The notes under the pieces: generated by a model | Told to the model about the DNA's origin: nothing | The model's database searches: none | The model's input: only the letters and a program-made list of their open reading frames with translations | Made by a program: the position numbers and the translations under genes | IMG/VR virus record: IMGVR_UViG_3300050159_000048 | DNA: 64,000 bases | Strand: one strand, 5' to 3' | DNA from: a virus | Lineage: Duplodnaviria > Caudoviricetes | Shown here: positions 427-61,967 of the stretch, piece after piece | How the letters are laid out: every line of letters begins with the position of its first letter | How positions within the stretch are numbered: the first letter of the stretch is position 1

Positions 427-519
427 CCACTCCTGTTGCGAAAAGACGGCAGCAGAGGTATTATCTCTCTGTCGTCGAACAAACGACATCAACCGCAAAC
501 AACTGCAAGGAACTGCACC

Positions 520-1101: not shown

Positions 1102-1129
1102 TCAAGCTGAGAGTCTACAAAGACTCTCG

Positions 1130-1167
1130 TTGACAACTGAATGGGGAGGTCTTATGATCTCCCCATT
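1130..1167 (+). promoter_or_regulatory. sigma70-type early promoter with -10 in hairpin loop
   Basis: TTGACA(1130)-17nt-TATGAT(1153); stem AATGGGGAG/CTCCCCATT; a separate upstream stem-loop GAGAGTCT/AGACTCTC. Confidence 0.8.
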
Positions 1168-1188
1168 CGCTATTTCCAAATCGCAAAC

Positions 1189-1440
1189 ATGTCCGGCTAC
1201 ACTGGCAATCCTGATGCAGAAGCAGAACACGCGCTTATCCTCGCTGAAAACGCGATTAGAGCGTCGCAATCGCTGATCGACGGTCCTCAGCTCGACGACT
1301 GTCTTGATTGCGGTGAATCGATCAATCCTCTGCGTGTAGCGGCGATGAAGAAGATCGGCATGCGTTGCATGTACTGCATCACCTGCCAACCGAAGCACGA
1401 CAAGGCTGGTGGCATCAGGATGCTTGACAGGATCCTGTAA
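1189..1440 (+). CDS. DksA/TraR C4-type zinc finger protein
   Basis: CLDCGESINPLRVAA...CMYCITCQ, the TraR/DksA C4 finger pattern, with an N-terminal DAEAE acidic tip. Confidence 0.85.
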   Translation: MSGYTGNPDAEAEHALILAENAIRASQSLIDGPQLDDCLDCGESINPLRVAAMKKIGMRCMYCITCQPKHDKAGGIRMLDRIL

Positions 1441-1459
1441 AGACAGGATAATGATCTCC

Positions 1460-1834
1460 ATGAACACCGCACACACCTCCGAAGACGAGCTCAACGAAGC
1501 TGCGTCCTTCTACAGCGATCTCCACAAGGACTTCTACGGCTTCCGGCCGCGGAACGACTTCAGCAACTGGACGGTCGCTGACTACGACGCTGCCGCGAAG
1601 CAGATCACTGATCAGATCGAACGCCGCAAGGAGACGTTCGAGGGTCGCGAGCAGCTGCGTGCTGAAGGCTGGATCGCTGACGAGGTGCTGCCGGACCTGA
1701 TGCAATCCGCGATCATCGCTGCGGAGAGCCGTGACGCTGCTCTGAAGGCTTCCTACGGTGACGACTGGCGGCTGTACGGCGAGGAGAGCATGCTGGAGGC
1801 TCCGAAGCTGCGCAAGCGCTGGGGTGTTGCCTGA
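1460..1834 (+). CDS. hypothetical phage protein (HKDFYGFRPR motif)
   Basis: ORF with codon bias, own upstream promoter. Confidence 0.75.
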   Translation: MNTAHTSEDELNEAASFYSDLHKDFYGFRPRNDFSNWTVADYDAAAKQITDQIERRKETFEGREQLRAEGWIADEVLPDLMQSAIIAAESRDAALKASYGDDWRLYGEESMLEAPKLRKRWGVA

Positions 1835-1883
1835 TCCGCTAGCCGGAGCTATACTCTACTCATCGTAATGCGGAGGCAACATC

Positions 1884-2297
1884 ATGCAGATCTCTCAAGC
1901 CAAACTCAGAAAGATGCGCAGTGGCCAGACTGTGTGGCGTGTGCTGGCACATATCGATGCCCATGGCCTCACCGTCGGCGTGCAGCCGGTGCACTTCACC
2001 GGCAAGAAGGTGCGCAAGCCGATCGGTGTTGGCAGTAGCTGGCGGCCCGTGCAATTCAATTGGGCTGCGTACAACCGCTTGTACGAGCAAGGCGGCAACT
2101 ACCGGTGGCTGACCAACCACTACAAGTTCGCCAATGATGCGTTCGGTCACGGTGCGTTCACCAGCCGCAACTCTGCCGAGCGGTTCGCGCAGGAGATCCG
2201 CGATGGCCTGCATCCTGACCTCATCATGCGTCTGCGGGACAACTTCGAGATGGACCAGTACCTCACGTATGACTACGGCCATCCGGAAGAGGACTGA
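1884..2297 (+). CDS. hypothetical protein
   Basis: GGAGG SD, TATACT upstream. Confidence 0.8.
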   Translation: MQISQAKLRKMRSGQTVWRVLAHIDAHGLTVGVQPVHFTGKKVRKPIGVGSSWRPVQFNWAAYNRLYEQGGNYRWLTNHYKFANDAFGHGAFTSRNSAERFAQEIRDGLHPDLIMRLRDNFEMDQYLTYDYGHPEED

Positions 2298-2302
2298 ACG
2301 AC

Positions 2303-2602
2303 ATGAAGTACTTTGACATCGGCGAAGAACGCTACCACCTCCGCCACCACAACGATGATGACAGCCGCACCGTTGTGCGCTGCGAGGACTTCTCATTCGC
2401 CGTGCTGCTGAAGTTCGACAGCAACCTCAACATCTTCAACGAAGAAGGCAAGCGCTGCGGCCGTCTGAAGGGCTACACCGGCAAATGGGTGTTGGTGATG
2501 GAGGATGGCGAAGAGCGCGATCTCAATGTCAGCTCCTTCGACTACGACTGGCAGGCGTTGGTGAAGGCCGAAGTGGAAGCAGCGAAGGTCCTCCTCAGCT
2601 AA
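2303..2602 (+). CDS. hypothetical protein
   Basis: follows previous ORF by 5 nt; codon bias. Confidence 0.75.
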   Translation: MKYFDIGEERYHLRHHNDDDSRTVVRCEDFSFAVLLKFDSNLNIFNEEGKRCGRLKGYTGKWVLVMEDGEERDLNVSSFDYDWQALVKAEVEAAKVLLS

Positions 2603-2614
2603 GGAACATACAAG

Positions 2615-2764
2615 ATGATCACGTTCGAGATTCAGTGCGCCGTCAAGGCCGGCCAACAAATCGCAGGGAAGCAAGGCGTCCGCGCTGGCGCTGACTACAT
2701 GGCAGCGAACGGCGTGCCGATGAAGCTCGCCCTGGCTGCCCTCGTGTTCTACATGCGCAAGTGA
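2615..2764 (+). CDS. small hypothetical protein (49 aa)
   Basis: AAGGA SD; read by hand, below the ORF-track cutoff. Confidence 0.6.
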   Translation: MITFEIQCAVKAGQQIAGKQGVRAGADYMAANGVPMKLALAALVFYMRK

Positions 2765-2771
2765 TCGCAGC

Positions 2772-2850
2772 GGGCCGGAAGCTTAAGCCCGGTATAAGCG
2801 CCCGACTCATAATCGGAGGATAGTGGGTTCGAATCCCACCCGGCCTACCA
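2772..2850 (+). tRNA. tRNA with CAT anticodon, probably Ile2 (lysidine type)
   Basis: cloverleaf: acceptor GGGCCGG/CCGGCCT, loop CTCATAA, GTGGG-TTCGAAT-CCCAC T arm, encoded CCA; C4-G69/C5-G68 and CGACTCATAATCG resemble Ile2. Confidence 0.9.
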
Positions 2851-2948
2851 CAATCCACTAGTAAACGCGCAGTTGTTGCGTGAAGTGTAGACATTATGCG
2901 AATAACATCGTATAGTATCTCCCACTAGTAAACATTCTGGAGAAAGCA

Positions 2949-3281
2949 ATGGGCTTCCGTACTGTTGTTGTGCTGATGAACGACCGAGCGAGTGAGTGGG
3001 AGAACGATCCCGCGCTCGGCAAACGGATCATGCTCTCTGCCTCAATGAAGAGCACGGGTCAGGTGACCGGTGCACGACATGAACTGCCGTACGGCGAAGT
3101 GGCGGAGCAGGTGCACGGTGATACGCAGTCGCTGATCATCGCCGACGGCTACTCCGCCCGCCCTGTCGCCCACAGCAATTGGCGGCGTGGTGATACGCAC
3201 GAAGTTGTGGAGATGCGGCTGCTGCGTGAGCTCGCCGACAAGCACGGCTTCGACCTGCACAAGAAGCGGAGCAAGAAGTGA
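2949..3281 (+). CDS. hypothetical protein
   Basis: GGAG SD, ORF track. Confidence 0.8.
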   Translation: MGFRTVVVLMNDRASEWENDPALGKRIMLSASMKSTGQVTGARHELPYGEVAEQVHGDTQSLIIADGYSARPVAHSNWRRGDTHEVVEMRLLRELADKHGFDLHKKRSKK

Positions 3282-3472
3282 TCTCGCCGCAAGACACCCC
3301 GGAAGGGGCGAGTGCCGTCTGCGTCGATGCCTCAGGCGTCAACGGAGAGCTGACGGAGGGGCGCACGTACGTCGTGCAGTACTGGGATGGTTGCTGCATC
3401 TCCGTCCGAGGAGATGATGGAATCGGCGTCACAGTCAATCGTGCCCGCTTTGTTCCGTCAGTGCTGAACTGA
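3278..3472 (+). CDS. hypothetical protein
   Basis: GTGA overlap with previous gene. Confidence 0.6.
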   Translation: MISPQDTPEGASAVCVDASGVNGELTEGRTYVVQYWDGCCISVRGDDGIGVTVNRARFVPSVLN

Positions 3473-3674
3473 GACACATCGTAGGCGGAGTTAGGTGACC
3501 AAGTCAACGCGGTCACCTTTCGTGCCGCTCAGGTATTATTCACTCGCCCGCTCTCGCCGTCCATCCCCGGCGTTGCCCGTTCGATCGCATGAATGCATTA
3601 TACTACCAAACATTGCTGTTGTGCTACTGCGTGTGTTGTGGTATTATATGCGTACTGAAACAAAGGAGCACGCG

Positions 3675-3968
3675 ATGGCGAACTACAAAGCACCTCTGAT
3701 CAAGTCGCTCGGTGAGGCCAACTACGCCACGAGTAGTTGGGGCGGCAAGCGCATCACCTTCACTCACGCTCGCAAGGACGGCACGCGGCGCGTCAAGCTG
3801 TGGCTCGCGAACGATGTGTTCCGATCGGATCGCGCACAACAACTGAAGCTCGAGGCGGCACTGAAGCGCAACTACGGTGACAAGTACCTCGGTGGCTACT
3901 TCATCGCTGGTGCTCGAAGTGGCCTGGGCGGCTCGCGCAGTTTCTGCGTCGTGATCAAGAACGACTGA
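3675..3968 (+). CDS. hypothetical basic protein
   Basis: AAGGAG SD, TTGTGC-17-TATTAT promoter upstream; start corrected to ATG 3675. Confidence 0.8.
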   Translation: MANYKAPLIKSLGEANYATSSWGGKRITFTHARKDGTRRVKLWLANDVFRSDRAQQLKLEAALKRNYGDKYLGGYFIAGARSGLGGSRSFCVVIKND

Positions 3969-3979
3969 AAGGCAACACC

Positions 3980-4285
3980 ATGAAGCGCTGGTCATACGCC
4001 AGCGCCGCATCATCTCATCACGGGACGATGCGGTGCAACTGCTGTGGCAAGGCGGTCGAGGGCGAATACCGCTACCGCGAAGGTCGAAGCGGCTACGTAG
4101 TCGAACGCCGTGTGTGCTCAGCGGGCGATGCGGAGTGGGCTCGGCGCGATGCACAGGTCGAGGCCGCCCGCATCCGGACCAAGGAGCAACTGGAAGCGTA
4201 CAAGGCGTTCCGCGACAAGTGGGATGAAGATGCCTTGGACGAGGCGATCGCTTTCCTGGAGAAGCACCTCCGGTATCTCGGTTGA
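3980..4285 (+). CDS. hypothetical protein with CxxC
   Basis: ORF track, AAGG SD. Confidence 0.7.
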   Translation: MKRWSYASAASSHHGTMRCNCCGKAVEGEYRYREGRSGYVVERRVCSAGDAEWARRDAQVEAARIRTKEQLEAYKAFRDKWDEDALDEAIAFLEKHLRYLG

Positions 4286-4319
4286 CGTTGTGGTGAGGAT
4301 ATGAGATACTATCCTCACC
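4282..4319 (+). promoter_or_regulatory. early promoter with -10 in hairpin loop
   Basis: TTGACG-17-GATACT; stem GGTGAGGATA/TATCCTCACC. Confidence 0.8.
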
Positions 4320-4338
4320 GTAACGCATTGGAGCACAC

Positions 4339-4656
4339 GTGACCGTCAAGCACATCATCGACCAGTTGGTTGATCGCGCTACCGAGCTTGGTTGACGACA
4401 AGCTCGGTACCAATTTCCTGGCATCACTGACGACTTGTATGAGGCGGCTGACGGCATGACGGACAAGGAGACCAAAGCGCTCCTTGAGGGCACGCCTATC
4501 CTCGCTCGGCGCAACATCCTTCGCCTGATTTCTGAAGCCCCTGTTGAAACTTGGTACTGTGATGATGGCTGGGTGGATTATGTGGCTGAATATGTGTGCA
4601 GGAATCGCAAGTCGCTCGGTAAGCTGATTACGCACATCAAGCAATTGGCCAGTTGA
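4339..4656 (+). CDS. hypothetical protein
   Basis: GGAG SD then GTG 4339, in frame with ORF 4435-4656. Confidence 0.7.
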
Positions 4657-4711
4657 CGTTGTGGCAAGGTTGCGTTATAGTATCTTCACTGTAACGCAAT
4701 CGGGAACTGAA

Positions 4712-5191
4712 ATGTCCACCTGCTACATCCTTCCTCGTGGTACTCAGATCAATCGTCAGCAAGTGCTGGCCAAGTTCGCGACGTACCTCAGCGACGAGGA
4801 CATGAAGGATACTGAGATCACCCTCGAGAACGCAGAGTCGGTCGGCATTAATGCTGGTGGCTCGTACTGCTGGGTCTCGTTCAACAACGATCTCGTCGGC
4901 TGCGTCTCGACGTATGGCTCTGGCAACGACGACGCTGTTGAGCACTTCGAGCAGACGTTCGGCACGCGTCTGATCAGCGAGCACGACGACGATTTCTCCT
5001 ACCACGACTTCCCTGTTGACGTCCGCGATCCGAACGTCAAGCCGATTGCTGAGAAGGATGGCTGGGAAGTGTTCGAGGACGATGGCTGGTGCTATCTGTA
5101 CAACAGGCCCAACAATTCGTTCTACACGCATGTGCAGTGTGAGCGTGAAGAGATGAACATCGACAACATGATCGCCGACGCTGACGAGTGA
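4712..5191 (+). CDS. hypothetical acidic protein
   Basis: ATG 4712 downstream of a promoter; codon bias. Confidence 0.8.
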   Translation: MSTCYILPRGTQINRQQVLAKFATYLSDEDMKDTEITLENAESVGINAGGSYCWVSFNNDLVGCVSTYGSGNDDAVEHFEQTFGTRLISEHDDDFSYHDFPVDVRDPNVKPIAEKDGWEVFEDDGWCYLYNRPNNSFYTHVQCEREEMNIDNMIADADE

Positions 5192-5195
5192 TCAG

Positions 5196-5233
5196 TTGAC
5201 GCTGCGGTGGGATGATGTTACAATCATCCCACC
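5196..5233 (+). promoter_or_regulatory. early promoter with -10 in hairpin loop
   Basis: TTGACG-17-TACAAT; stem GGTGGGATGAT/ATCATCCCACC. Confidence 0.8.
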
Positions 5234-5262
5234 AGTTAGTAACAGCCACATGAGGTTTCAGC

Positions 5263-5532
5263 ATGGCTAAGGTCTTCGTTCTCTCCGTCAACGGCGGCGA
5301 AGTTGAATCACATCTCGGCGTCTACCGCTCGATGGAATCGGTGATGAAAATGATCACCGAAGAGCGCGACGGCGGCGGCTTCACGCAAGACAACGGGTAT
5401 GACACCGTATCGCCCGCGCGTGAGCCTGAAGATGCAGCAACCGTGACGCTGGTGTATGTGTACGAGCAGGGTCGTGAGTTCTACGACTGGTCGCTGCTGT
5501 TCACGATCCGAGAATGTGAAGTGCAAGACTGA
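5263..5532 (+). CDS. hypothetical protein
   Basis: GAGG SD, own promoter. Confidence 0.8.
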   Translation: MAKVFVLSVNGGEVESHLGVYRSMESVMKMITEERDGGGFTQDNGYDTVSPAREPEDAATVTLVYVYEQGREFYDWSLLFTIRECEVQD

Positions 5533-5603
5533 CTTCGGTTGACGCGGCTGCGGGATGGGGTTACAATCATCCCACTAGTAAACATTCTGCTCTGAGGCAC
5601 ATC

Positions 5604-5861
5604 ATGAGTCAATTCTGTATCCTCTCCACCAACGGCAGCTGGGCCAACGCGTTGGGTTTGGTTGGCGTGTGCGCCGCTGACCTGCACGCGTTTCGCTCGT
5701 TCGTCTACGAGCACTCCGAAGGTGACGATATGACGGTGATGAGCACCTCGGAAGAGATCACCGCGCTGCTGGATAAGGAGGAGCTCGACGTGATCTCGGA
5801 CGGTGAAGCACGCTACGCCGTCACGATCAACGACCACGTGTACGTTGCGGTGGAGTTCTGA
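5604..5861 (+). CDS. hypothetical protein
   Basis: GAGG SD, promoter TTGACG(5539)-17-TACAAT. Confidence 0.8.
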   Translation: MSQFCILSTNGSWANALGLVGVCAADLHAFRSFVYEHSEGDDMTVMSTSEEITALLDKEELDVISDGEARYAVTINDHVYVAVEF

Positions 5862-5872
5862 GGAGACCGACC

Positions 5873-6121
5873 GTGCTGATGTACGATCTGATCAAAGACC
5901 GGCTGCCGCAGCTGATCGACGTCAGCGACGAAGCAGCAGTGCGGCGCATCGCAGAAGACCTGGCTGAGAAGCGGTGGTTGCAGCATGAGATCGCACGCTA
6001 CCTGCGCTGGACGGAGTACTACGAGGTGACTGTCAGCGAAGAACGCTGTCTCACTCGCATGAAGGTTGTCAGTGATCAGGTGAATGAGCGGTTGAGCAAA
6101 GCGTATACGCTCAGCATCTAA
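5873..6121 (+). CDS. hypothetical protein
   Basis: GAGGAG SD, GTG start. Confidence 0.7.
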   Translation: MLMYDLIKDRLPQLIDVSDEAAVRRIAEDLAEKRWLQHEIARYLRWTEYYEVTVSEERCLTRMKVVSDQVNERLSKAYTLSI

Positions 6122-6193
6122 GAAGTCAACGGTTGCCGTCTTGGTGAGGATGCGTTATAGTATCCTCACCGTAACGCATTGGAGCAACGTAAT

Positions 6194-6508
6194 ATGCTGA
6201 CCAAGATCAAAATCGAATATCAGGCCAATTACAACGGCTGTTCCGTCCTCTGCTACTTCAACGGCGAAGAGGACGGTTTCGATGACTTCGACGTGCAACG
6301 GAAGGATCCTGACCTCCACGTCAAGGTGGAAGCTCTGCAGGATGCCGTGATCGACAAGGCGTACGAAGACGTGATCAAGGAAGGGCGCCATCAGGGTGAG
6401 TTCAACGGCGACACGGACGACCTCAAGGAATTCGCTGTCAACAGGGCGAAGGAAGTGTTCGGTGAGGGGGTGGAGATCGTGTTCGAAGTGGATGATTCGT
6501 CCACCTGA
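6194..6508 (+). CDS. hypothetical acidic protein
   Basis: GGAG SD; promoter TTGCCG(6133)-17-TATAGT with stem GGTGAGGAT/ATCCTCACC. Confidence 0.8.
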   Translation: MLTKIKIEYQANYNGCSVLCYFNGEEDGFDDFDVQRKDPDLHVKVEALQDAVIDKAYEDVIKEGRHQGEFNGDTDDLKEFAVNRAKEVFGEGVEIVFEVDDSST

Positions 6509-6659
6509 CCACGTTGCCATCTGAGTGGGATGATTGTTACAATAATCCCACTAGTAAACATTCTCGGTACACATCATGATCTATCTCAAGGTTGCCCTGT
6601 TGTTCTCTCCCGTCATTGCGATGATGATTGCAATCATCGTGAAGAGGGAGTGGTGAATC

Positions 6660-7142
6660 GTGGGTTGGTGGGGTGAAGGTGTGATGGAGGGCGATACGCC
6701 GTGTGACGTCGAACTGACTATGGAGGAGGCGATTCTCGGTCAGCTCCTCCATGACATCTACGACAACGACGGAAAGAAGGCAGCGAACAAGGCTGTAAAG
6801 CTGTACGCTGAACGCCTGAAGGATCCCGTCTACGTGCAGAAGGCGATCGCGGCGATCGACACGGAGGACGAGATCGAAGTGCAGGCTCTCGGCTACGTCA
6901 TCATGGCGTATGGTGGCACAATCGAGCCGATTCGCGCTGAACTGCTGCAGGCGATCGCCAGTGATGACTCGTCATCGTGGCGTAATGCGTCTGCACGTCA
7001 ACGTGCTATGACGAACTTTCGTCGTCGTGTCAATCGCTATACGGGCAACCGTCGAAGTCAAGCACGCATTCAACGTGGACTGCTTCAAGCGATCGGTGAA
7101 GCACTGTCAACTGAGACGAGCGGTCTTGTCAACTGTCGATGA
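6660..7142 (+). CDS. hypothetical protein
   Basis: GGAG SD, GTG start, codon bias. Confidence 0.75.
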   Translation: MGWWGEGVMEGDTPCDVELTMEEAILGQLLHDIYDNDGKKAANKAVKLYAERLKDPVYVQKAIAAIDTEDEIEVQALGYVIMAYGGTIEPIRAELLQAIASDDSSSWRNASARQRAMTNFRRRVNRYTGNRRSQARIQRGLLQAIGEALSTETSGLVNCR

Positions 7143-7235
7143 CTGAAATGGGCGGACAATTCCGCCCACGTTGACCAAGCAGCCGGTTTCTGTTATACTG
7201 GCTTCACTGTCAAACAACACACGCAAGGAACCGAA

Positions 7236-7742
7236 ATGTCCAAGCAAATCCGCGATCTGTTCAGCAACGTCAACGGCGCCAACTTCATCAGCATCGACAC
7301 GGAAACGATTCCGAAGCTGACTGGCGGCAAGAAGAACCCGATGCAGGGTGCGATCCGCAAGGTGACGATCGGCAGCAACGTGATGGTGTTCTCGAACAAG
7401 TCGGGCAGCGCCTACGGTGCGATGGTGGAACGTCGTCTGCGTCAAGAGGGCAAGGATCCTGCATCGTTCCAACTGAGCGAACGTGCATGGGGCACTCGCG
7501 TCGAAGGCACGCCGATCATCGAGCACCACGGTGAAACGTACATTGAAGTGATCTTCCTGAAGTCGGGCAAGACTCACTACCTGCACGGCGTGCGTCCGAT
7601 CAACAAGGCGGAAATCGAAGGCATGCCTGCTGATCACGGAGAAAGTGAACAGGGCGGACTGGAAAACAAGGTGATCATTCGCACGATCAAGGCAGACAGC
7701 ATCAAGCGTGTGGTGATCGACGGGCAAGTCCACACGTTCTAA
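7236..7742 (+). CDS. hypothetical phage protein
   Basis: AAGGA SD; promoter TTGACC(7171)-17-TATACT. Confidence 0.85.
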   Translation: MSKQIRDLFSNVNGANFISIDTETIPKLTGGKKNPMQGAIRKVTIGSNVMVFSNKSGSAYGAMVERRLRQEGKDPASFQLSERAWGTRVEGTPIIEHHGETYIEVIFLKSGKTHYLHGVRPINKAEIEGMPADHGESEQGGLENKVIIRTIKADSIKRVVIDGQVHTF

Positions 7743-7751
7743 GCTGACCAG

Positions 7752-7789
7752 TTGACAAAGTGAGGAGAGTAGACGATACTCTCCTCACT
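7752..7789 (+). promoter_or_regulatory. early promoter with -10 in hairpin loop
   Basis: TTGACA-17-GATACT; perfect 12-bp stem AGTGAGGAGAGT/ACTCTCCTCACT. Confidence 0.85.
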
Positions 7790-7805
7790 GACGAGAAAGA
7801 GCACC

Positions 7806-7991
7806 ATGCCTACCGAACAACATCTCCCGTCCGTCATCACCACAACTGATGCGGCGCGCGTTGGCCGTGAGGTGTTTGGATGCACGAGACTCAGTCCATC
7901 TCAACTTGAGTTTGCTTTCGCAATTGAGCGTGTTGTCATTGAACGCTTGATCGCAGAGAATCTCATCCGTCACGCCAACATTCAGGAGTAA
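7806..7991 (+). CDS. small hypothetical protein
   Basis: own promoter, ORF track. Confidence 0.6.
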   Translation: MPTEQHLPSVITTTDAARVGREVFGCTRLSPSQLEFAFAIERVVIERLIAENLIRHANIQE

Positions 7992-8290
7992 TGATGCAAT
8001 CGATCGTGGTGTACCGCAATCCGCTCGAAGCGGCGATCTGGGAAGGTCTGATGGGCGGTGGTTGGATGTTCATCGTCGTCCTCATCGTCGCCACACTCGC
8101 TGGTGTGTGGGTGTATACGGCGATTGAAGCGTCGTATCGCCGTCATCGCCACACCTACACGTTCAGCTCCAAGAAAACGCCGAATACGTGGTTCTACACG
8201 GTCTACCGCCACAACGGCAAGATCGCGACCGCGGTGACGATCGGCCTGCTGATCCTTGCCCATGTCGCCAACATGCGTGGGTGGTGGTGA
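7991..8290 (+). CDS. membrane protein
   Basis: two hydrophobic segments; CAGGAG SD. Confidence 0.75.
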   Translation: MMQSIVVYRNPLEAAIWEGLMGGGWMFIVVLIVATLAGVWVYTAIEASYRRHRHTYTFSSKKTPNTWFYTVYRHNGKIATAVTIGLLILAHVANMRGWW

Positions 8291-8581
8291 CCAGTTGACC
8301 AAGAGCCAGTATTATGAGATACTGGCTTCACTGTCAACCAACTGGGACCAACCATGATGGAACAATTTGTTGTTAAGTACTTCCGTGACAGGAAGAACTC
8401 AGGTCAGACGGGCATGTGGCTGTGTGAACATGTCTGTTGTGCTGGATACTGGCATTATCAACAGTTGTCTTTCTTGGGCAAGAAGGATGAGTACTACAGT
8501 TGAACTTTGCGGGCAACTGATCCGTTGACCAACAGCCAGTATTGTGAGATACTGGCTTCACTGTCAACCAGAGGAACGAAA

Positions 8582-8761
8582 ATGCAAACCTTCTCCGCAA
8601 CCACCCTTCGTCAACTGCGTGACCATCTGAACTTGTTGTCTGACGACGCGTTGGACACTGAGATCAAGTGCGTCACGTGTTCGGATGATGTGGAGGATGC
8701 TGTTGAAGTGACGATCAGCGACGAGGGCGTCGACATCATCGGTCCTGTTGATTGGCTCTGA
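8582..8761 (+). CDS. small acidic protein
   Basis: GAGGA SD; promoter at 8525. Confidence 0.7.
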   Translation: MQTFSATTLRQLRDHLNLLSDDALDTEIKCVTCSDDVEDAVEVTISDEGVDIIGPVDWL

Positions 8762-8826
8762 CCACTGTTGACCAACGGTGAAGCCTGTGGGATACTGGCT
8801 TCACTGTCAACCAACGGAGATCCGAA

Positions 8827-9126
8827 GTGTCCTACGTCATCTACAACACCGAAACGCTGCAACGGATGAAGTCGCCGAGCAGTGGCCAGCAGACGTTCGA
8901 GACGGAGCGCGTCGCCAAAACGATCCGCACGAAGGTGCTGAAGAAGGTGGATGCGTCGGAGTCGGAAGCTGCTGAGTGGGTGGTCGCCGAGTACAGCGCG
9001 TGGCAGACAGCCGACGTGATGATCACGGTGAAGAGCCTGATGAACGGCGCTGATGTGCAGATCCGCAAGTCGCAACGGGGCAGCCGCGCCTCCGATCCGA
9101 GCATGGAGGGCTACTGGACGATGTGA
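8827..9126 (+). CDS. hypothetical protein
   Basis: GGAG SD, GTG start; promoter at 8768. Confidence 0.8.
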   Translation: MSYVIYNTETLQRMKSPSSGQQTFETERVAKTIRTKVLKKVDASESEAAEWVVAEYSAWQTADVMITVKSLMNGADVQIRKSQRGSRASDPSMEGYWTM

Positions 9127-9228
9127 CCAGTTGACCATCTGAGTGGGCAGGTTAATACCTGCCCACTTGTCGTGTTTGGTCAATTGTGTTATTATCTCTT
9201 TGTCGTTAAACAACTGTAGGAGATCCAA

Positions 9229-9396
9229 ATGATCATCACTCTCACGATTCCCGACGAACTGATCAAGAAGACAGCCGAACAACAGGACATGACTGAACAA
9301 CAAGTGCAGGAGGCGATTCTCAAGCACTACCAAGCTTATGACAACCAGAAAAACGGTTTGTTGGAAGAGCATGTGAACGACATGCTGAACTTCTGA
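9229..9396 (+). CDS. small hypothetical protein (55 aa)
   Basis: AGGAG SD; TTGTCG-17-TATTAT promoter. Confidence 0.65.
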   Translation: MIITLTIPDELIKKTAEQQDMTEQQVQEAILKHYQAYDNQKNGLLEEHVNDMLNF

Positions 9397-9400
9397 CCAG

Positions 9401-9447
9401 TTGACCAGCAGTTGATGTGGTGCTATGATGTACCACATCAACTGCTG
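9401..9447 (+). promoter_or_regulatory. early promoter with -10 in loop of a 16-bp hairpin
   Basis: TTGACC-17-TATGAT; stem CAGCAGTTGATGTGGT/ACCACATCAACTGCTG. Confidence 0.85.
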
Positions 9448-9453
9448 AGGAGC

Positions 9454-9651
9454 ATGCACATGGACAAATTCGACAGCTCGGAAGAAGCGACCGCTTTCGT
9501 TGACGAACTGGAAGCGATGCTGAACGATCCGCGCCTACTGGAGTGGGCAAAGTCAACGGATCAGAACTTCGGCACGAATGCACACTCGCATCTGATCCAT
9601 GCTCGTCGCGCTGTTGACGAGTTCGTCTCGCAGTTGGACGAAGCGAACTAA
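9454..9651 (+). CDS. small hypothetical protein
   Basis: GAGGAG SD. Confidence 0.7.
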   Translation: MHMDKFDSSEEATAFVDELEAMLNDPRLLEWAKSTDQNFGTNAHSHLIHARRAVDEFVSQLDEAN

Positions 9652-9715
9652 CCTGTTGACCAAATATGAGGAGAGTGGTATTATCTCCTCACTGATTCAA
9701 CAACAGGAGCTAAGC

Positions 9716-9886
9716 ATGAGCATGAACAAGTTCATCATCCGCAACGACGTCACTCACCACTCGTGGGAAGCGTCTGCTAGCGAAGCCCGCCTCTACGCGA
9801 TCGGCGGCGCCTGGGACGTCGGCACCTACTCGGTGTTCCGTTCCGACTGCCCGAGCATCTGCCTCTCCGCATTCGACTTCGCCTGA
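9716..9886 (+). CDS. small hypothetical protein
   Basis: CAGGAG SD; promoter at 9656. Confidence 0.7.
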   Translation: MSMNKFIIRNDVTHHSWEASASEARLYAIGGAWDVGTYSVFRSDCPSICLSAFDFA

Positions 9887-9980
9887 CAACGGTTGAGCCT
9901 TACAGTCAACCGCGTTGACCAAATGTGAGGCTGGTGGGATACTGGCTTCACTGTCAAACAACCAAGCAAGGACACACATC

Positions 9981-10529
9981 ATGTCGCAACTGCAAGCTCT
10001 GTTCGCCCCCCTGAAGGATCGTCTCGTTGAAGTGCGTCAGCGCGACGAGTCGGTCAAGGTGTTCCGCCTCTACGCGCTCAGCGACAAGCAGGGCGTGATG
10101 AAGGACTCGAGCAAGGAGCCGTACGTGATCCTGATGGAGCAGGGCGGCGCGGTGACGATGTCGATCCACCCGCAGCACGCCTCCCGCCTGATGAAGAAGG
10201 GCGAAGACAGCGGCATGAAGCTCCTGGAAGCCGTTTGCCAAGCGGAGACGGCTGAGGACACCAGTGAGCCTGTGATCGTCGATTCTACGCCGGTTTTGAC
10301 GGCTTCTCAGCCGGCTGTCGAACCCAAGGCCGCTCCCGCCGTCGAGCCTGCCGTCGCCGAAGCGCCCGTCAAGGCCGCATCGAAGAAGGATCGCGCGGTG
10401 GCGATCTACAAGACGATGGCGGGCAAGCCGCGCAAGGAGATCGTCGCAGCGTTCATGAGTCAACTGGGCCTCTCCGCCCCCGGTGCTTCGACGTACCACC
10501 AGAACTGCAAGTCGGGTCTGTGGTCCTGA
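9981..10529 (+). CDS. hypothetical protein with Ala/Pro linker and putative C-terminal helical DNA-binding domain
   Basis: KKDRAVAIY...RKEIVAAFMSQLGLSAPGASTY helix pattern; promoter at 9915. Confidence 0.75.
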   Translation: MSQLQALFAPLKDRLVEVRQRDESVKVFRLYALSDKQGVMKDSSKEPYVILMEQGGAVTMSIHPQHASRLMKKGEDSGMKLLEAVCQAETAEDTSEPVIVDSTPVLTASQPAVEPKAAPAVEPAVAEAPVKAASKKDRAVAIYKTMAGKPRKEIVAAFMSQLGLSAPGASTYHQNCKSGLWS

Positions 10530-10535
10530 CAACAG

Positions 10536-10577
10536 TTGACCAAACGACAAGGAGATGAGACACTCTCCTTGTCGTTT
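10536..10577 (+). promoter_or_regulatory. early promoter with -10 in loop of a 14-bp hairpin
   Basis: TTGACC-17-GACACT; stem AAACGACAAGGAGA/TCTCCTTGTCGTTT. Confidence 0.75.
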
Positions 10578-10595
10578 ATCAATTGGAGAACAGAA

Positions 10596-10826
10596 ATGTT
10601 CATCGTGGTCACTGGAAACATCGTCAATTGTGGAGAACAGACTCCGTCCGACACGATCGGTGATGTTGACAAGTTCCTCTCTCGGGAGGAAGCTCTCTCC
10701 TTCATCAAGGAGGGGTTTGAGGAGGAGGAGTGGGAGTTCTACGAAACTCCGAATGGTTTCTTCCTTCCTGTCAACGAGGATGAGTTGACAGATGGTTACT
10801 TTTTCTACCGGTTGATTGTGGTCTAA
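10596..10826 (+). CDS. small acidic protein
   Basis: GGAG SD. Confidence 0.7.
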   Translation: MFIVVTGNIVNCGEQTPSDTIGDVDKFLSREEALSFIKEGFEEEEWEFYETPNGFFLPVNEDELTDGYFFYRLIVV

Positions 10827-10830
10827 CCAG

Positions 10831-10868
10831 TTGACCAAAGTGGGGAGATGTGGTATTATCTCCCCACT
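10831..10868 (+). promoter_or_regulatory. early promoter with -10 in hairpin loop
   Basis: TTGACC-17-TATTAT; stem AGTGGGGAGAT/ATCTCCCCACT. Confidence 0.85.
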
Positions 10869-10892
10869 GAATCAACAACGGAGCGCATCCAA

Positions 10893-11168
10893 ATGATTTC
10901 TGTTTTCGTGTTCGAAGGTGGTGAGGGTGTCGGTGATGACAACACCGTCAGTGTCACTGAGTGGTCGGAAGCGGAGCTGATCCGCGTGATCAGCGAATAC
11001 GTTGGTGAATGCGACGGCGTCGCATGGAAGGATCAAACGATCGAATTGGCTGATGACAACGGCCCCAAGATCCTCGGCGATACGTTCGAGATTGTCAACG
11101 GCAATCTCGCACAAGCTGCCAAGTGCGGCGTTGATGGTGGTCAGATCTACGTCGTTCGCTGTATCTGA
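10893..11168 (+). CDS. hypothetical protein
   Basis: GGAG SD, own promoter. Confidence 0.75.
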   Translation: MISVFVFEGGEGVGDDNTVSVTEWSEAELIRVISEYVGECDGVAWKDQTIELADDNGPKILGDTFEIVNGNLAQAAKCGVDGGQIYVVRCI

Positions 11169-11233
11169 CCAGTTGTCCAAAGCGAGGAGATGTGTTATTA
11201 TCTCCTCACTGAATCAACAACCGGACACGAACC

Positions 11234-11473
11234 ATGTACGACAAGCTGATGGCCCGCTTCCCGAAAGTTGAAGCTCTGATCACGGACCTGATCTGTGAAG
11301 GCGCTCACCTGACGACCGACGCTGCTGTTGAGGCGATTCGTGAAGTGTATGACCGCGAAGGTCCGTACGAATACGCTAAGCGTTTCGGCCTGCTGGTCGA
11401 CGGCAGCGGCGAAGAGTTCGCGATCGAGTGGATGTCGTTCTACAACGAATACGCTGGTCGCTCGGTGTATTGA
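11234..11473 (+). CDS. hypothetical protein
   Basis: own promoter at 11173. Confidence 0.75.
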   Translation: MYDKLMARFPKVEALITDLICEGAHLTTDAAVEAIREVYDREGPYEYAKRFGLLVDGSGEEFAIEWMSFYNEYAGRSVY

Positions 11474-11537
11474 GCGTTGACCAAGATGAGGGGACGAGGT
11501 ATCATCTCCTCACCTAATCAACAACCGGAGAGCTGAG

Positions 11538-11837
11538 ATGGCTACCCTCACGATGCACCCGTATGACGCCAGCCGCGTCAGCTGGAACATGGTCGACAAG
11601 AGGGCTTCGGCGTTCGCCAGCGACCTCGGGCTTCGGCCAGGCCACCGCTTCGAGAGCATCTACGACGATGCGTGTGACGACGGGATCTGCATCGTCAACC
11701 ACAATACCGGACGGGCTGTTGTGTGGGCGCTGCGTGCGGACGCCACCAGTGAAGCGTTCCGGTTCGTGCCGGCCACCGAGTCCATCCACAAGTACCCGCA
11801 CATGCAGGGGTGGGAGCTGACGATCTACAACACGTGA
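11538..11837 (+). CDS. hypothetical protein
   Basis: GGAG SD; promoter at 11477. Confidence 0.8.
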   Translation: MATLTMHPYDASRVSWNMVDKRASAFASDLGLRPGHRFESIYDDACDDGICIVNHNTGRAVVWALRADATSEAFRFVPATESIHKYPHMQGWELTIYNT

Positions 11838-11903
11838 CCAGTTGACCAAACACGAGGAGGGTGGGATACTCTCCTCATTGGTTAAGCAATCAGGAGTCGC
11901 AAG

Positions 11904-12086
11904 ATGCACACGTTCGCAAACATGATCCACTTCATCAGCACCGCCTACACCGGCGGCGGCCTGAAGAGCATCATTCGCTACATGGGTCTGCAGCACCCCG
12001 ACCGCGTCACGGACATGTACCTGCGTGGCGAGCCGGCCAACTACATCGCAGCCGCAACGCTCGCCGTCAATCAGATCGGTGCTTGA
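11904..12086 (+). CDS. small hypothetical protein
   Basis: CAGGAG SD; promoter at 11842. Confidence 0.75.
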   Translation: MHTFANMIHFISTAYTGGGLKSIIRYMGLQHPDRVTDMYLRGEPANYIAAATLAVNQIGA

Positions 12087-12146
12087 TAGCGTTGACCTAG
12101 TAGTGGGGGTGAGGTATTATCCCCTCATAGCAACCAAGGAGCACAC

Positions 12147-12380
12147 ATGAGCCAGCCCGTCTTTGTCGGCACCGCCTTCACCGGTCAGCCCGTCACCGCT
12201 GATGAGAAGGTGGAGTGTCCCGGCTGTGGTGAGTTGTGCGGACTGCGCAGCACTGGCTGGTTCGATCAGTACCGCGAAGAGAGCAAGGCGTCGCCTGCAG
12301 GCGGGGTGTATGTGCACTTCGGTTGCCTGTCACAGCGCCGGTTCGAAGAGGTCAACGAAGTTCACGCTGTCGCGGGTTGA
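12147..12380 (+). CDS. small Cys-containing (zinc-binding?) protein
   Basis: CPGC...HFGC; AAGGAG SD. Confidence 0.75.
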   Translation: MSQPVFVGTAFTGQPVTADEKVECPGCGELCGLRSTGWFDQYREESKASPAGGVYVHFGCLSQRRFEEVNEVHAVAG

Positions 12381-12467
12381 GGGCCAGCACAATGCAGAAG
12401 AGCAAGGTTGACTGGTTGGCTGAGCTGAAGTATACTTCGGTCAAGGTCAAACAAGGAGAGAAGCAAC

Positions 12468-12722
12468 ATGGACATCAGCGAGCTGATCAAGCAAGTGCGG
12501 CGGTGGGTGCTGGGCGCCTGCACCGAGTGGAACGAGCAGGTGAAACAGTTCGCCGACCTGAACGGCGTTGAGTTCCGCGCGTTTGTTGAGCGCACAGCCA
12601 ATGTGGTGATCCGCTACATCCGCGGGCAGCAGACGCTGGACGGCTCGTGCAGTGACCTGGAGTGCACGCTCGCCATCGAGGCACGGCACGTGTTCGGGTG
12701 GCATTCGACTTCGGTTGACTGA
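12468..12722 (+). CDS. hypothetical protein
   Basis: AAGGAG SD; promoter at 12408. Confidence 0.75.
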   Translation: MDISELIKQVRRWVLGACTEWNEQVKQFADLNGVEFRAFVERTANVVIRYIRGQQTLDGSCSDLECTLAIEARHVFGWHSTSVD

Positions 12723-12772
12723 ACGAAGGGGGAGGTGTTATCATCCCCCCTTTTTACCTCAGGAGTTCGTAT

Positions 12773-13141
12773 ATGAACAAGCTGATCGCTTCCCTTATGC
12801 TCGCCCTGGCTGGCTTCGCGCAAGCTGCCACGACGAGCTCGTCAACCAAAGTCGAAGTACTGTCCGCTCAGACAAGTGCTGTGGTTGACTACGGCGCCAT
12901 GCCACGCATGATGATGTTCCACTCGGAACGCAATGCGATATCGGTAGACGGCATGATCCTAGTCTGCCTTCGCGAATTCCGCGCGAAGGAGGGTGATTGC
13001 ACTCACCCAACGACGGGCGAAAACGCTTGGCGTGAACTAGGCTCCATCGCTCCAAGCGGCTGGAAGGTTGTTGCGTATGATGTCCGGTTTGTTGGTTCTG
13101 GTTACCGATACGTGATCGTGTACTTTGCACGTGTGAAGTGA
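12773..13141 (+). CDS. secreted/periplasmic protein
   Basis: signal peptide MNKLIASLMLALAGFAQA; CAGGAG SD. Confidence 0.75.
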   Translation: MNKLIASLMLALAGFAQAATTSSSTKVEVLSAQTSAVVDYGAMPRMMMFHSERNAISVDGMILVCLREFRAKEGDCTHPTTGENAWRELGSIAPSGWKVVAYDVRFVGSGYRYVIVYFARVK

Positions 13142-13193
13142 TCTCCGGTGACTATCCCGTAAATAGCGGGATACAGTCAAGGAGACCACTTCA

Positions 13194-13454
13194 ATGAAAG
13201 TAGCAGACCTGTTCGAAGGCGCAATGAAGCGCAGTGACCCGTACGTTAGCGGCGATCGGGAGGGAGCCCCAGCCCCCGCGGCTCCTAAGAAGCGTAAGGT
13301 TGATAGGTTCGAGACGATGGCTCGCAAGGCTGGTGTCAGCGTCGCCGCTGTTCGTAGTGCATGGCACGCCGCTAAGAAGGAAGTCGACATGTCCCGCACC
13401 AATGCGTATGCGATTGTACAGCGAAAGGTGATGGACCAGCTAGCGGCACGCTGA
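13194..13454 (+). CDS. putative internal head protein (late, CTS-like N-terminus)
   Basis: TAAATA at 13160; N-terminus MKVADLFE; basic. Confidence 0.65.
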   Translation: MKVADLFEGAMKRSDPYVSGDREGAPAPAAPKKRKVDRFETMARKAGVSVAAVRSAWHAAKKEVDMSRTNAYAIVQRKVMDQLAAR

Positions 13455-13490
13455 GCCTGCTGATCGCTGCGCACAACTGCGTTGACCACC

Positions 13491-13818
13491 GGTGAGGGTT
13501 GATGTATCATCCCCTCATTGATTCAATAAGGACGCAAGTGATGACTCTCCTCGAGCAGATCAACCAGCAACAACAGGTTGTGCATGCTGCTGAAGATGCC
13601 CGCCGTGAGGCGGCCGTGCAGCTGAACAAGCTCCTTGACCAACGCATGGACTGCGACCATGACTTCAGCAAGCCGTTGAAGGGATACGAACACGAAGGTG
13701 GTCATTGCGTCAAGTGTGGCATCAACGAAGTGTTCTGGGCTTGCACCAAGCGTTGATCGTGCGATGACCTAAGTTGACCATTGGTGAGGGTTGATGTATC
13801 ATCCCCTCATTGATTCAA
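13491..13818 (+). repeat. 36-bp direct repeat of a promoter cassette (13491-13526 and 13783-13818)
   Basis: GGTGAGGGTTGATGTATCATCCCCTCATTGATTCAA identical twice, each after TTGACC. Confidence 0.9.
13541..13756 (+). CDS. small coiled-coil plus zinc-finger protein
   Basis: CDH...HCVKC; AAGGA SD. Confidence 0.7.
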   Translation: MTLLEQINQQQQVVHAAEDARREAAVQLNKLLDQRMDCDHDFSKPLKGYEHEGGHCVKCGINEVFWACTKR

Positions 13819-13833
13819 CTGGAGAACAATCAC

Positions 13834-14070
13834 ATGACCAACGAAGACCAAGTCCGCTCTCTCGTCAAAGGCACTACTGTTGCAAAGGCGGTTGAAGTGC
13901 TGGAGCGGCTAAAGAAGCTCGCCGCATTGAAGATCGCCTCTGACAATGAAGACTTCAACGCGTGCGACTACAGCGGCGGCAACTACGACGATGCCTTCGA
14001 CATTGGTGAGTGGTGCGGTAAAGTGCAGGCAGCTCGTGACCTGCTGGATGAGCTCGGGATCGAGTACTGA
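13834..14070 (+). CDS. hypothetical protein
   Basis: GGAG SD. Confidence 0.75.
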   Translation: MTNEDQVRSLVKGTTVAKAVEVLERLKKLAALKIASDNEDFNACDYSGGNYDDAFDIGEWCGKVQAARDLLDELGIEY

Positions 14071-14075
14071 GCTGT

Positions 14076-14291
14076 ATGAGTGAACAAACAAATGCGTACG
14101 GTGAGCGTTGGTTGGTGTGTCCGGAGTGCAGTAGCCGAGACGTTGCCGTTACCGCTGAGCAAATGCTGATGGTGAACACCGGCGACCATTACTGCCATAG
14201 CGTCAAGGCGCATGACGATGATGCAAAAGCTAGGTGCCTGGATTGTGGCTGGGCTGGTGCGCGCAGCGACCTCAGCACTGAAAGCGACTGA
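14076..14291 (+). CDS. zinc-ribbon protein
   Basis: CPEC...CLDC. Confidence 0.7.
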   Translation: MSEQTNAYGERWLVCPECSSRDVAVTAEQMLMVNTGDHYCHSVKAHDDDAKARCLDCGWAGARSDLSTESD

Positions 14292-14302
14292 ACCAGACCG
14301 CG

Positions 14303-14340
14303 TTGACCTACGATAGGGGGATGAGAGATCATCCCCCTAT
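14303..14340 (+). promoter_or_regulatory. early promoter within a 12-bp hairpin
   Basis: TTGACC-18-GATCAT; stem ATAGGGGGATGA/TCATCCCCCTAT. Confidence 0.7.
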
Positions 14341-14360
14341 TCTATTATAGGAGTCGAATA

Positions 14361-14921: not shown

Positions 14922-14942
14922 GCCTACGGTAGGAGTTAGTGT

Positions 14943-15545: not shown

Positions 15546-15592
15546 TCAAGCTATAGTCTCCCCTATTGTAACACATACAGAGGAGCACGCAC

Positions 15593-15910: not shown

Positions 15911-16043
15911 TGAGAGCACACGGAGCAAGACGCACCTATGCCAAGTGCAGGGTGGTGAGAGCAGGGTTCGGCAAGAAGATCGTCGTTCGACTGCACGTAA
16001 AGAACCACAAGACTGATAGGCAGAAGCCTGTTGGTGAGGAAAC

Positions 16044-60978: not shown

Positions 60979-61908
60979 TTATACTTGGCCGAGACGAATG
61001 AATAGTGCTGCAGCATTGATCTCAGGATCAGCTACAAACGTGTGTTTGTATAGGTGTTCGGCGATCAAAGTAATCGCCTCTTCCCACTTATCTTTCTTGT
61101 TGAACTTGGGTGACGATGCGATGTTCTCGTACAGGTACTTGAACAAAGCTTCCCACTCTTCAGTAGTAACGTTGGCGCAAGCCAACTTCCGAGCACCTTC
61201 CCAATCATCTGATGCAATCAGGTTGATTAGCTCCATCCGCCATTCACCAGACCCTGCTGCTTTTGCTTCAGTTAACGTGCCGTCAACCGCGTGTTGTTGC
61301 AGTAGGTTGATGATTTTACGGATATCTGGATATCCAGCGGTAATGTACGCATCGAGTGCCTCCATCTTGAAATGGATATGTTCGTCGCGCAGCATATAGA
61401 TCATTTGTTCCGTAACATCCAACCGGTCAGCAGCTCGAAAGGTGTATTCTTGACAACGAGATCGAATGGGAGGGATCAGCTTGTTGATGTGGTTCGTCGT
61501 CATGATGAACCGTACACTGTCGCTTACTTCCTCCATGAACGCTTTCAACGCGTCCTGGGCTTCTGGTGTAAGCCGCTCAGCTTCTTCCAAGTGCACGATC
61601 TTGAACCGGCCGAGAGCCATTGACGTAGCGAAGTTGTAAATCTTCTCGCGGAAAGTATCAATCCCGCGTTCGTGAGAGGCATTGATAGTGCAAATGTCGG
61701 CTGGATCGAGGTCCATTGCCGAAATTAGAATCTGTGCAAGTGTCGTCTTGCCGGTGCCTTGTACACCCGCTAAGATTAGTTGGGGGATGGACTTATCACG
61801 CACCATTCGCGTGAATGCTTGTCGGTGCGTTTCGTTTTGAAAGACGTATTGCTCGAGGGTGCGAGGACGGTATTTTTCAACCCACAAAACGTGCTTATCT
61901 AGTGACAT
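60979..61908 (-). CDS. clamp loader AAA+ subunit (T4 gp44/RFC small-subunit-like)
   Basis: WVEKYRP, GVQGTGKTT, NASHERGID, LEEAERLT..AQ.AL, IRSRC. Confidence 0.95.
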   Translation of the reverse strand: MSLDKHVLWVEKYRPRTLEQYVFQNETHRQAFTRMVRDKSIPQLILAGVQGTGKTTLAQILISAMDLDPADICTINASHERGIDTFREKIYNFATSMALGRFKIVHLEEAERLTPEAQDALKAFMEEVSDSVRFIMTTNHINKLIPPIRSRCQEYTFRAADRLDVTEQMIYMLRDEHIHFKMEALDAYITAGYPDIRKIINLLQQHAVDGTLTEAKAAGSGEWRMELINLIASDDWEGARKLACANVTTEEWEALFKYLYENIASSPKFNKKDKWEEAITLIAEHLYKHTFVADPEINAAALFIRLGQV

Positions 61909-61914
61909 ATGATT

Positions 61915-61960
61915 CTCCATGTTGTTCCGCTATTATACGGAAGGGTACATGGAGAATCAA
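61915..61960 (-). promoter_or_regulatory. sigma70-type promoter in an SD-sequestering hairpin
   Basis: TTGATT-17-TATAAT; TTCCG/CGGAA encloses the -10; CTCCATGT/ACATGGAG covers the SD. Confidence 0.75.
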
Positions 61961-61967
61961 CCGCGTC

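Follow-up and report, generated by a model that had tools for sequence, protein, structure and literature searches.

The DNA analysed here (hereafter the window, 64,000 nt in length) spans bases 74062-138061 (minus strand) of the 174,565-bp IMG/VR virus record IMGVR_UViG_3300050159_000048 (CheckV completeness ~50%), and the elements in question are the sigma70-type promoters of its small early genes, many of which carry a hairpin over or beside the -10 box. The public sequencing runs that contain the phage are leaf-litter metagenomes, and no RNA run is listed among them. Its major capsid protein (gp23-type) is 62% identical to that of XacN1 (a Xanthomonas jumbo phage), 58% to those of the Stenotrophomonas phages RAS14 and CM1, 51% to that of Ralstonia phage RsoM2USA and ~35% to that of a T4-like cyanophage. 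The record also encodes rIIA, rIIB and the large terminase, together with homologues (22-28% identity) of the RB49 proteins uvsX, gp44, gp46, gp47 and the late sigma factor gp55. On these protein comparisons the phage is predicted to be an uncultured XacN1-like jumbo myovirus, which belongs only distantly to the T4 superfamily and lies outside the Straboviridae. A megablast search of the early region against GenBank phages did not recover a near relative.

Positions 1-16000 of the window, together with ~36 kb upstream in the same record (negative positions below), are an early-gene 'ORFanage' (ORF, open reading frame). The early genes encode 40-200 amino acids (aa), and of the ten proteins tested nine had no Pfam match, while the tenth matched below threshold. 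Almost every small early gene has its own predicted sigma70-type promoter, which fills entirely the intergenic gap of ~65 nt in front of it. The cassettes follow one order: stop codon, 4-28 nt, TTGACn, 17 nt, (T/G)AnnnT, a start site ~7 nt further on, a CA-rich leader of ~25 nt that includes GGAG, and ATG; the distance from the stop codon of the upstream gene to the -35 box is mostly 4-28 nt, and the next start codon follows 24-38 nt past the -10 box.

The regular expression TTG[AC]C-N16-18-[TG]AnnnT, applied to the + strand, defined a set of 28 promoters between 1130 and 14303, in agreement with the ~28 promoters in 14 kb counted in an earlier reading of the same letters (the original prediction). 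About three of them (1424, 10666 and 12408) fall inside ORFs and are probably chance matches. A consensus scanner recovered 49 sigma70-like sites in 1-16500, against 6.4 +/- 2.2 in shuffled sequence. The AT fraction at -57 to -38 (0.451) equals that of the region (0.452), so that no enrichment is seen upstream of the -35 box. The family had been described as genome-wide; instead, strict matches on that strand number 34, of which 23 fall in 0-20000 of the window, and few are found elsewhere in the 174.5-kb record. Looser members reach 36 kb upstream of the window, with the concentration in 0-16000.

Paired arms in the early promoters

The hairpin-in-promoter pattern is real and far above chance. 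The key control was an arm swap between promoters, by which both composition and the shared consensus are preserved. When each spacer was paired with the downstream sequence of the same promoter, the longest Watson-Crick (WC) run averaged 7.79, as compared with 4.79 +/- 0.28 for permuted arms (equalled in 0 of 20000 permutations; 28 promoters), and a perfect stem of at least 8 bp was present in 14 of the 28, where 1.8 are expected under the swap. The 54 regular-expression hits of the wider early region gave a mean run of 6.43 (4.26 permuted), and 34 of them fold with a z-score below -2. Comparison with shuffled controls, proposed together with the original prediction, hence comes out in favour of own-arm pairing. 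All eight stems that it had listed are present in their places, within a base pair or so: 10 bp (13 with one G:U) at 1139, 10 at 4292, 11 at 5206, 13 at 7759, 16 at 9406, 14 at 10542, 11 at 10839 and 12 at 14313. Folded as RNA, the eight reach -17 to -30 kcal/mol (z -4.8 to -8.3), and none of 200 shuffles folded as well.

The arms co-vary, that is, pairing is kept rather than one operator sequence. Covariation was scored in an axis-centred table of 21 hairpins instead of a covariance model, because the axis shifts by +/-1 nt between copies and fixed columns would be misaligned. At positions -6 to +2 of the 3' arm (21 promoters) almost all pairs are WC, with two to four pair types per position, and G:U pairs are found at the stem flanks. 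The stems sort into ~6 paralogous families plus several unique ones, comprising at least ten unrelated arm sequences, and where the 4282 and 5196 families differ by single-base deletions, these occur in both arms and preserve the pairing. Moreover, the 3' sequence GATACT-GGCTTCAC recurs in several modules and pairs there with differing 5' arms in differing registers (two of them via G:U). The earlier claim that the stems differ while pairing is maintained is thus upheld by the arm swap and by the axis-centred table alike.

These results bear directly on the view that the inverted repeat is an operator, bound over the -10 box by a dimeric regulator of phage or host that shuts the early promoters off. 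A loose palindromic consensus (GTGAGGAG ... CTCCTCAC) does lie at a fixed position over the -10 box and the start site, which is the classic repressor position. This speaks for such a role, but the number of unrelated arm sequences, the symmetric compensatory changes that keep pairing, the use of one 3' arm in several registers and the excess of own-arm over swapped-arm pairing all speak against it. The hypothesis of a single operator was rejected by the arm-swap and covariation tests, and we regard operator function as very unlikely.

In the main class the spacer (~-24 to -13) serves as 5' arm and is rich in purines, and the pyrimidine-rich 3' arm extends from the discriminator to +2/+3 (purine fractions 0.67 and 0.34); stems measure 6-16 bp and loops 4-13 nt. 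The arms are symmetrical about the upstream edge of the -10 box: the axis deviates by no more than 1 nt from the first base of the hexamer (approximately promoter position -12). From the -10 box to the end of the 3' arm the median distance is 9 nt (~+2/+3), and where the loop is short the last two to four bases of the box are often paired in the stem. The -10 box had been placed in or next to the loop, which holds insofar as the axis is at its edge; the box itself is often partly within the stem. The same geometry had been reported at about 27055, 31409 and, on the minus strand, 61925: a promoter inside a hairpin is found at all three, although the last is of a differing type, its 3' arm containing the ribosome-binding site.

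Not all hairpins enclose the -10 box. Promoters at -36023, -13205, -10858, 7171 and 9915 lack such a hairpin and have one upstream of or over the -35 box, and the promoter at -4844 has one located in the spacer. Overall, 29 of 43 intergenic promoters have a hairpin in the interval that runs from the upstream stop codon to 5 nt past the start site, as compared with 21% of random windows. The common constraint thus appears to be a hairpin 'between upstream stop codon and start site', and not a '-10 in loop'. Direct repeats in the region are limited to promoter modules of 24-54 nt, with homology that ends at the gene borders.

Relation to promoter-early stem-loops

The original prediction did not connect the family with a published element, to which it corresponds. 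Promoter-early stem-loops (PeSLs) have been described in the T4-like phages RB49/phi1, T4/PST and KVP40/nt-1 (Arbiol 2010, PMC2839356; Comeau 2014, PMC4122927) as sigma70 promoters with a stem-loop 'between the -35 and -10 or overlapping the -10', with Gn...Cn stems, G-T pairs and five positional subclasses (PMC2839356; PMC4122927). One PeSL stem-loop cut downstream lacZ expression as much as rrnB T1, and inter-PeSL recombination in RB49/phi1 gave rise to indels and mini-circles (PMC2839356). Passing mentions aside, the term is used in the papers searched only for T4-like phages.

The likeness is extensive. In both cases a near-consensus sigma70 promoter occupies a very short gap between small ORFan genes, with the Shine-Dalgarno sequence (SD) and the start codon just downstream; the stem-loop lies between the boxes, over the -10, or over or upstream of the -35 (several positional subclasses in both places); the 5' arm is rich in G/purine and the 3' arm in C/pyrimidine, G-T pairs occur (here, internal G:T 9 vs A:C 2), and the modules are short repeats. 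When bases 1-50000 of RB49 were re-measured with the same pipeline, we obtained the same geometry, with arm purine fractions of 0.67/0.33 (0.67/0.34 here) and a 3' arm ending 8 nt after the -10 box (9 nt here). RB49 likewise does not show a U-tract (2.4 T of 8, with 2.26 expected). The differences concern the phage, here a ~350-kb XacN1-like jumbo phage with 45-57% GC and 22-28% identity to RB49 core proteins, and the dominance of the subclass that encloses the -10 box. We conclude that the promoter hairpins are very probably PeSL-type cassettes, a known design in a new phage lineage.

Relatives extend the picture. G001, a complete 350-kb IMG/VR genome, has the same promoter family and an early region that is collinear but heavily remodelled; its 3' arms end, as in this phage, a median of 9 nt after the -10 box, and in one example an 8-bp stem has a loop consisting of exactly the -10 hexamer plus one base. 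One-to-one compensatory change could not be followed against G001, as the orthologous promoter pairs are too diverged (~45-60% aa identity for the flanking genes). In L056 (IMGVR_UViG_3300021514_000002; 363 kb, 37% GC; positions 2300-8700) a co-varying hairpin of 5-6 bp lies inside the spacer, directly before the -10 box, with GNRA-like loops (GGGA, GCAA, CGGA). Transcribed into RNA, its -10 box would give UAUAAU or UAUUAU and might serve as a weak U-tract. In XacN1 and RAS14 a minority of promoters have such hairpins. An exact-motif scan of IMG/VR for the G001/RB49-like module GGGAG-TAnnAT-nCTCCCA matched only G001 and one other contig; therefore, the resemblance to RB49 stems reflects a shared design and not a widespread identical cassette.

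The definition of PeSLs comes from three pairs of T4-like phages, and their mode of working is still largely assumed. The presence of the same design in a distant, GC-rich, ~350-kb jumbo-phage lineage from soil suggests a general solution for dense arrays of single-gene early cassettes, and shows that PeSLs are not a coliphage peculiarity. Any account has to explain co-varying arms, the missing U-tract (RB49 included), a 3' arm that stops at the start site and a hairpin that may stand anywhere from stop codon to start site. As to practical use, early promoters and the limits of gene cassettes can be recognised by these modules in the genomes of uncultured phages.

Level of action of the hairpins

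Transcription from a promoter begins downstream of the 5' arm, so that the promoter's own transcript cannot form the hairpin; folding requires either RNA that has read through from the preceding gene or extruded DNA. We reason that the hairpin may act on read-through RNA, by attenuation or termination, by pausing, by protecting a 3' end after cleavage, or as a processing site. Read-through from ~25 strong co-directional promoters in 13 kb would otherwise accumulate along the array, and with insulation each cassette would be expressed at the level of its own promoter, independently of the combined flux from up to ~25 co-directional ones. Upstream of the start site, a gap of 65 nt leaves no sequence unconstrained except the spacer and the discriminator; the position of the -10 box in the loop would follow from this, without any structural role for the box itself. 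Of the three mechanisms offered in the original prediction, RNA hairpins that insulate against read-through are the only one that fits the added evidence, and it is on balance probable that each cassette is insulated in this way. Taken whole, PeSL-type cassettes in an ORFanage, with insulation inferred at the RNA level, are the best explanation that we can offer, and a probable one.

Several observations hint at action in RNA. Hairpin position varies (around the -10 box, in the spacer, upstream of or over the -35 box) and is always upstream of the start site. The sense RNA folds 1.7 kcal/mol better than the antisense (p = 0.003), and G001 behaves likewise (p ~0.002-0.003). Internal mismatches, when pooled, comprise 16 G:T and 6 A:C (p = 0.05), and at stem edges 18 G:T were counted where 9.9 are expected. 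The GNRA-like tetraloops in the spacer hairpins of L056 fit in with this.

A further indication comes from hairpins that hide a ribosome-binding site. In the T4 genes e, soc, 49 and I-TevI, translation is controlled by a hairpin whose arms flank a late promoter. A lock of this type (read-through RNA hides the downstream ribosome-binding site, and translation takes place only from the transcript of the gene's own promoter) holds at three promoters of the record, -10858, 1827 and 61925(-); at the first (~148860-148950 of G000:C1) the -10 box plus discriminator pairs with the SD of the next gene. The three sites follow the T4 logic exactly, with the start site inside the hairpin, so that only read-through RNA would fold and the SD would be free in the own transcript, but they do so with an early-type promoter. 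Promoter-in-hairpin locks make sense only in RNA, and their presence in the same genome therefore counts toward action at that level. As a general function, however, the lock was rejected and is most improbable: the main-class 3' arm stops short of SD and AUG (ending ~15 nt before the SD), and accessibility from SD to AUG in the read-through RNA of 34 promoters was not specifically lowered (0.45, vs 0.48 with a swapped upstream half; p = 0.77).

Other observations weigh against insulation by read-through RNA. Composition explains ~0.5 of the 1.7 kcal/mol by which sense and antisense differ, the G:T excess is modest and based on 22 mismatches, and one third of the intergenic promoters have no clear hairpin. 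A U-tract was not found after the stems (2.25 T in 8 nt, with 1.7 expected), and the region has 7 canonical terminator-like sites, below the 13.1 of shuffled sequence. The hairpins share with Rho-independent terminators a GC-rich stem right after the stop codon, but differ from them in lacking the U-tract and in overlapping a promoter. Without a U-tract classical intrinsic termination is unlikely, and the canonical intrinsic terminator was rejected on this ground and on the low count of terminator-like sites. Altogether, the evidence for action at the RNA level is suggestive, not decisive.

The variable position of the hairpin also bears on gating at the DNA level, in which the palindromes would extrude as cruciforms on negatively supercoiled injected DNA and pre-melt or mask the -10 box, yielding supercoiling-sensitive early promoters. 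Extrusion is physically possible for the many perfect palindromes of 10-16 bp with loops of 4-6 nt; the axis falls where melting begins (within +/-1 nt of the -10 box's first base), and the 3' arm (~-9 to +3) coincides with the region melted in the open complex. Nevertheless, the hairpin is not tied to the -10 box (it is also found over or upstream of the -35 and, in L056 and RB49, within the spacer), many copies have loops of 8-13 nt, near-consensus promoters should need no help in melting, and G:T is favoured even though a top-strand G:T equals an A:C mismatch in the bottom strand. We therefore deem cruciform gating improbable. Pre-melting by cruciforms and single-stranded -10 decoys for sigma70, the other two mechanisms of the original prediction, gained no specific support, and the variable hairpin position argues against both.

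The early hairpin promoters of phage N4 have a 5-7 bp stem and a 3-nt loop, are extruded on supercoiled DNA with the host single-stranded DNA-binding protein, serve the virion RNA polymerase and contain no -35/-10 boxes. They resemble the present family in that promoter function is tied to an inverted repeat in injected phage DNA. The analogy, which had been drawn loosely, fails on geometry and polymerase type, as here we find ordinary sigma70 -35/-10 boxes, stems of 6-16 bp, loops of 4-13 nt and a hairpin of variable position.

Alternatively, the palindromic modules could be targets of gp46/47 (SbcCD-like) or other nucleases, and serve as seams for the gain, loss and shuffling of cassettes; quasi-palindrome correction, rather than selection on RNA, would then keep the arms perfectly paired. 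Such shuffling corresponds to the PeSL mini-circle model. The confinement of direct repeats to 24-54 nt promoter modules that end at gene borders is in line with this, as are the gp46 and gp47 homologues, an early region collinear with that of G001 yet heavily remodelled, and the recombination and mini-circles between PeSLs shown in RB49/phi1 (PMC2839356). On the other hand, homology-driven recombination requires repeats, not palindromes; the unique stems at 9401, 10536 and -2344 share no arm sequence with other copies; a promoter stands at every gene border, so that any indel is near one by default; and no joints were seen on 1-16500 in four leaf-litter or related runs (a weak negative, as the contigs are fragmentary and near-identical). 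As the explanation of the hairpins we consider recombination seams unlikely. A role in DNA-level recombination is nonetheless compatible with everything seen, though it does not itself require palindromes, and under RNA-level insulation the repeated modules may double as such seams. There is little likelihood that the hairpins are, from RB49 to soil jumbo phages, DNA elements, be it supercoil-sensing, cruciform-prone gates centred at -12 or break and recombination seams cut by gp46/47; if they were, one mechanism would be common to a coliphage and to the jumbo phages of soil.

Module catalogue and neighbouring features

The modules are compiled in Table 1, together with promoters of other hairpin types.

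Table 1. Promoter-hairpin modules by window position (boxes given as -35 hexamer, spacer length, -10 hexamer; WC, Watson-Crick pairs).
Promoter or element	Position	Strand	Hairpin and remarks
TTGACA-17-TATGAT	1130..1168	+	arms 1139-1151 / 1156-1168; 12 WC + 1 G:U, 4-nt loop; -24.3 kcal/mol, z -7.5
TTGCCT-17-TATACT	1822..1886	+	-35 region pairs with ribosome-binding site of next gene; translation-lock type, not PeSL type
TTGACG-17-GATACT	4282..4325	+	arms 4292-4301 / 4310-4319; 10 WC, 16 with two G:U
TTGACG-17-TACAAT	5196..5233	+	arms 5206-5216 / 5223-5233; 11 bp, 6-nt loop
TTGCCG-17-TATAGT	6133..6170	+	arms 6143-6153 / 6160-6170; stem paralogous to 4282
TTGCCA-18-TACAAT	6514..6552	+	arms 6524-6536 / 6540-6552; 12 WC + 1 mismatch
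promoter at 7171, no -10 hairpin	7149..7199	+	8-bp hairpin just upstream of -35, arms 7149-7156 / 7161-7168; another positional subclass
TTGACA-17-GATACT	7752..7789	+	arms 7759-7771 / 7777-7789; 13 bp, 5-nt loop; last 4 nt of -10 in stem
TTGACC-17-GATACT	8295..8327	+	arms 8304-8312 / 8319-8327; 3' sequence shared with 8525, 8768, 9915, 7171, register differs
near-copy of 8295 module	8525..8557	+	arms 8534-8542 / 8549-8557; 47-nt repeat, 96% identical
TTGACC-17-GATACT	8768..8807	+	arms 8775-8785 / 8797-8807; entire -10 in loop
TTGTCG-17-TATTAT (weaker promoter at 9167)	9140..9195	+	13-bp hairpin, 3' arm over -35
TTGACC-17-TATGAT	9401..9447	+	arms 9406-9421 / 9432-9447; unique 16-bp stem; -30.3 kcal/mol, z -8.3
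TTGACC-17-TATTAT	9656..9691	+	arms 9667-9674 / 9684-9691
TTGACC-17-GACACT	10536..10577	+	arms 10542-10555 / 10564-10577; unique 14-bp stem
TTGACC-17-TATTAT	10831..10868	+	arms 10839-10849 / 10858-10868; 11 bp
TTGACC-17-TATCAT	11477..11515	+	arms 11484-11497 / 11502-11515; imperfect stem, 11 WC, 1 G:U, 2 A:C
TTGACC-17-GATACT	11842..11876	+	arms 11854-11862 / 11868-11876; 8 WC + 1 G:U
TTGACT-18-TATCAT	12715..12760	+	arms 12726-12732 / 12746-12752, then TTTT; only canonical-terminator look-alike of the set
TTGACC-17-TATCAT	13482..13520	+	6 WC + 2 G:U stem; 46-nt repeat shared with 13774 module
copy of 13482 module	13774..13814	+	46-nt repeat
TTGACC-18-GATCAT	14303..14340	+	arms 14313-14324 / 14329-14340; 12 bp, 4-nt loop
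TTGATT-17-TATAAT	61895..61975	-	12-13 bp stem; -35 region pairs with SD of downstream gene

Elsewhere the phage apparently uses terminator-like hairpins, judging from stem-loops at 27015-27050 (followed by a run of T) and 9140-9169 (with a T-rich tail, overlapping the -35 box of the next promoter). The promoter at 7171 also varies between sources: a 317-nt contig from a public run labelled as an organism and not as a metagenome (X16) has five differences from the window, all at 7169-7185 (four in the spacer of this promoter and one 2 nt before its -35 box), and is otherwise identical. The cluster may be a gene-conversion patch.

The leader is conserved at +1 to +20 of most promoters between 1130 and 14340 (ACTG-A/T-n-TCAAC-A/C-AAC, then GGAG), and the same CA-rich motif is found in G001, L056 and RB49. 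Its GTCAA/TCAAC is complementary to the TTGAC of the -35 box, and predicted folds contain an outer 5-bp stem around the whole promoter. The leader could be a translational enhancer or a structural part, between which covariation cannot decide because the -35 sequence is fixed.

Behind the first hairpin promoter (1141-1440) a 99-aa protein is encoded, with a sub-threshold match to the DksA/TraR C4 zinc finger and 60% aa identity to its counterpart in G001; on that match it could be an RNA-polymerase-binding early protein. A tRNA-Met(CAT) lies amid the early cassettes at 2772-2850, followed by a promoter-like site of its own at 2888, and genes for tRNA-Ala and tRNA-Pro are found farther along the window (37051-37122 and 37529-37606). 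Lastly, three radical-SAM (S-adenosylmethionine) proteins cluster at 48555-54496 among fibre-like genes (PHROG matches).

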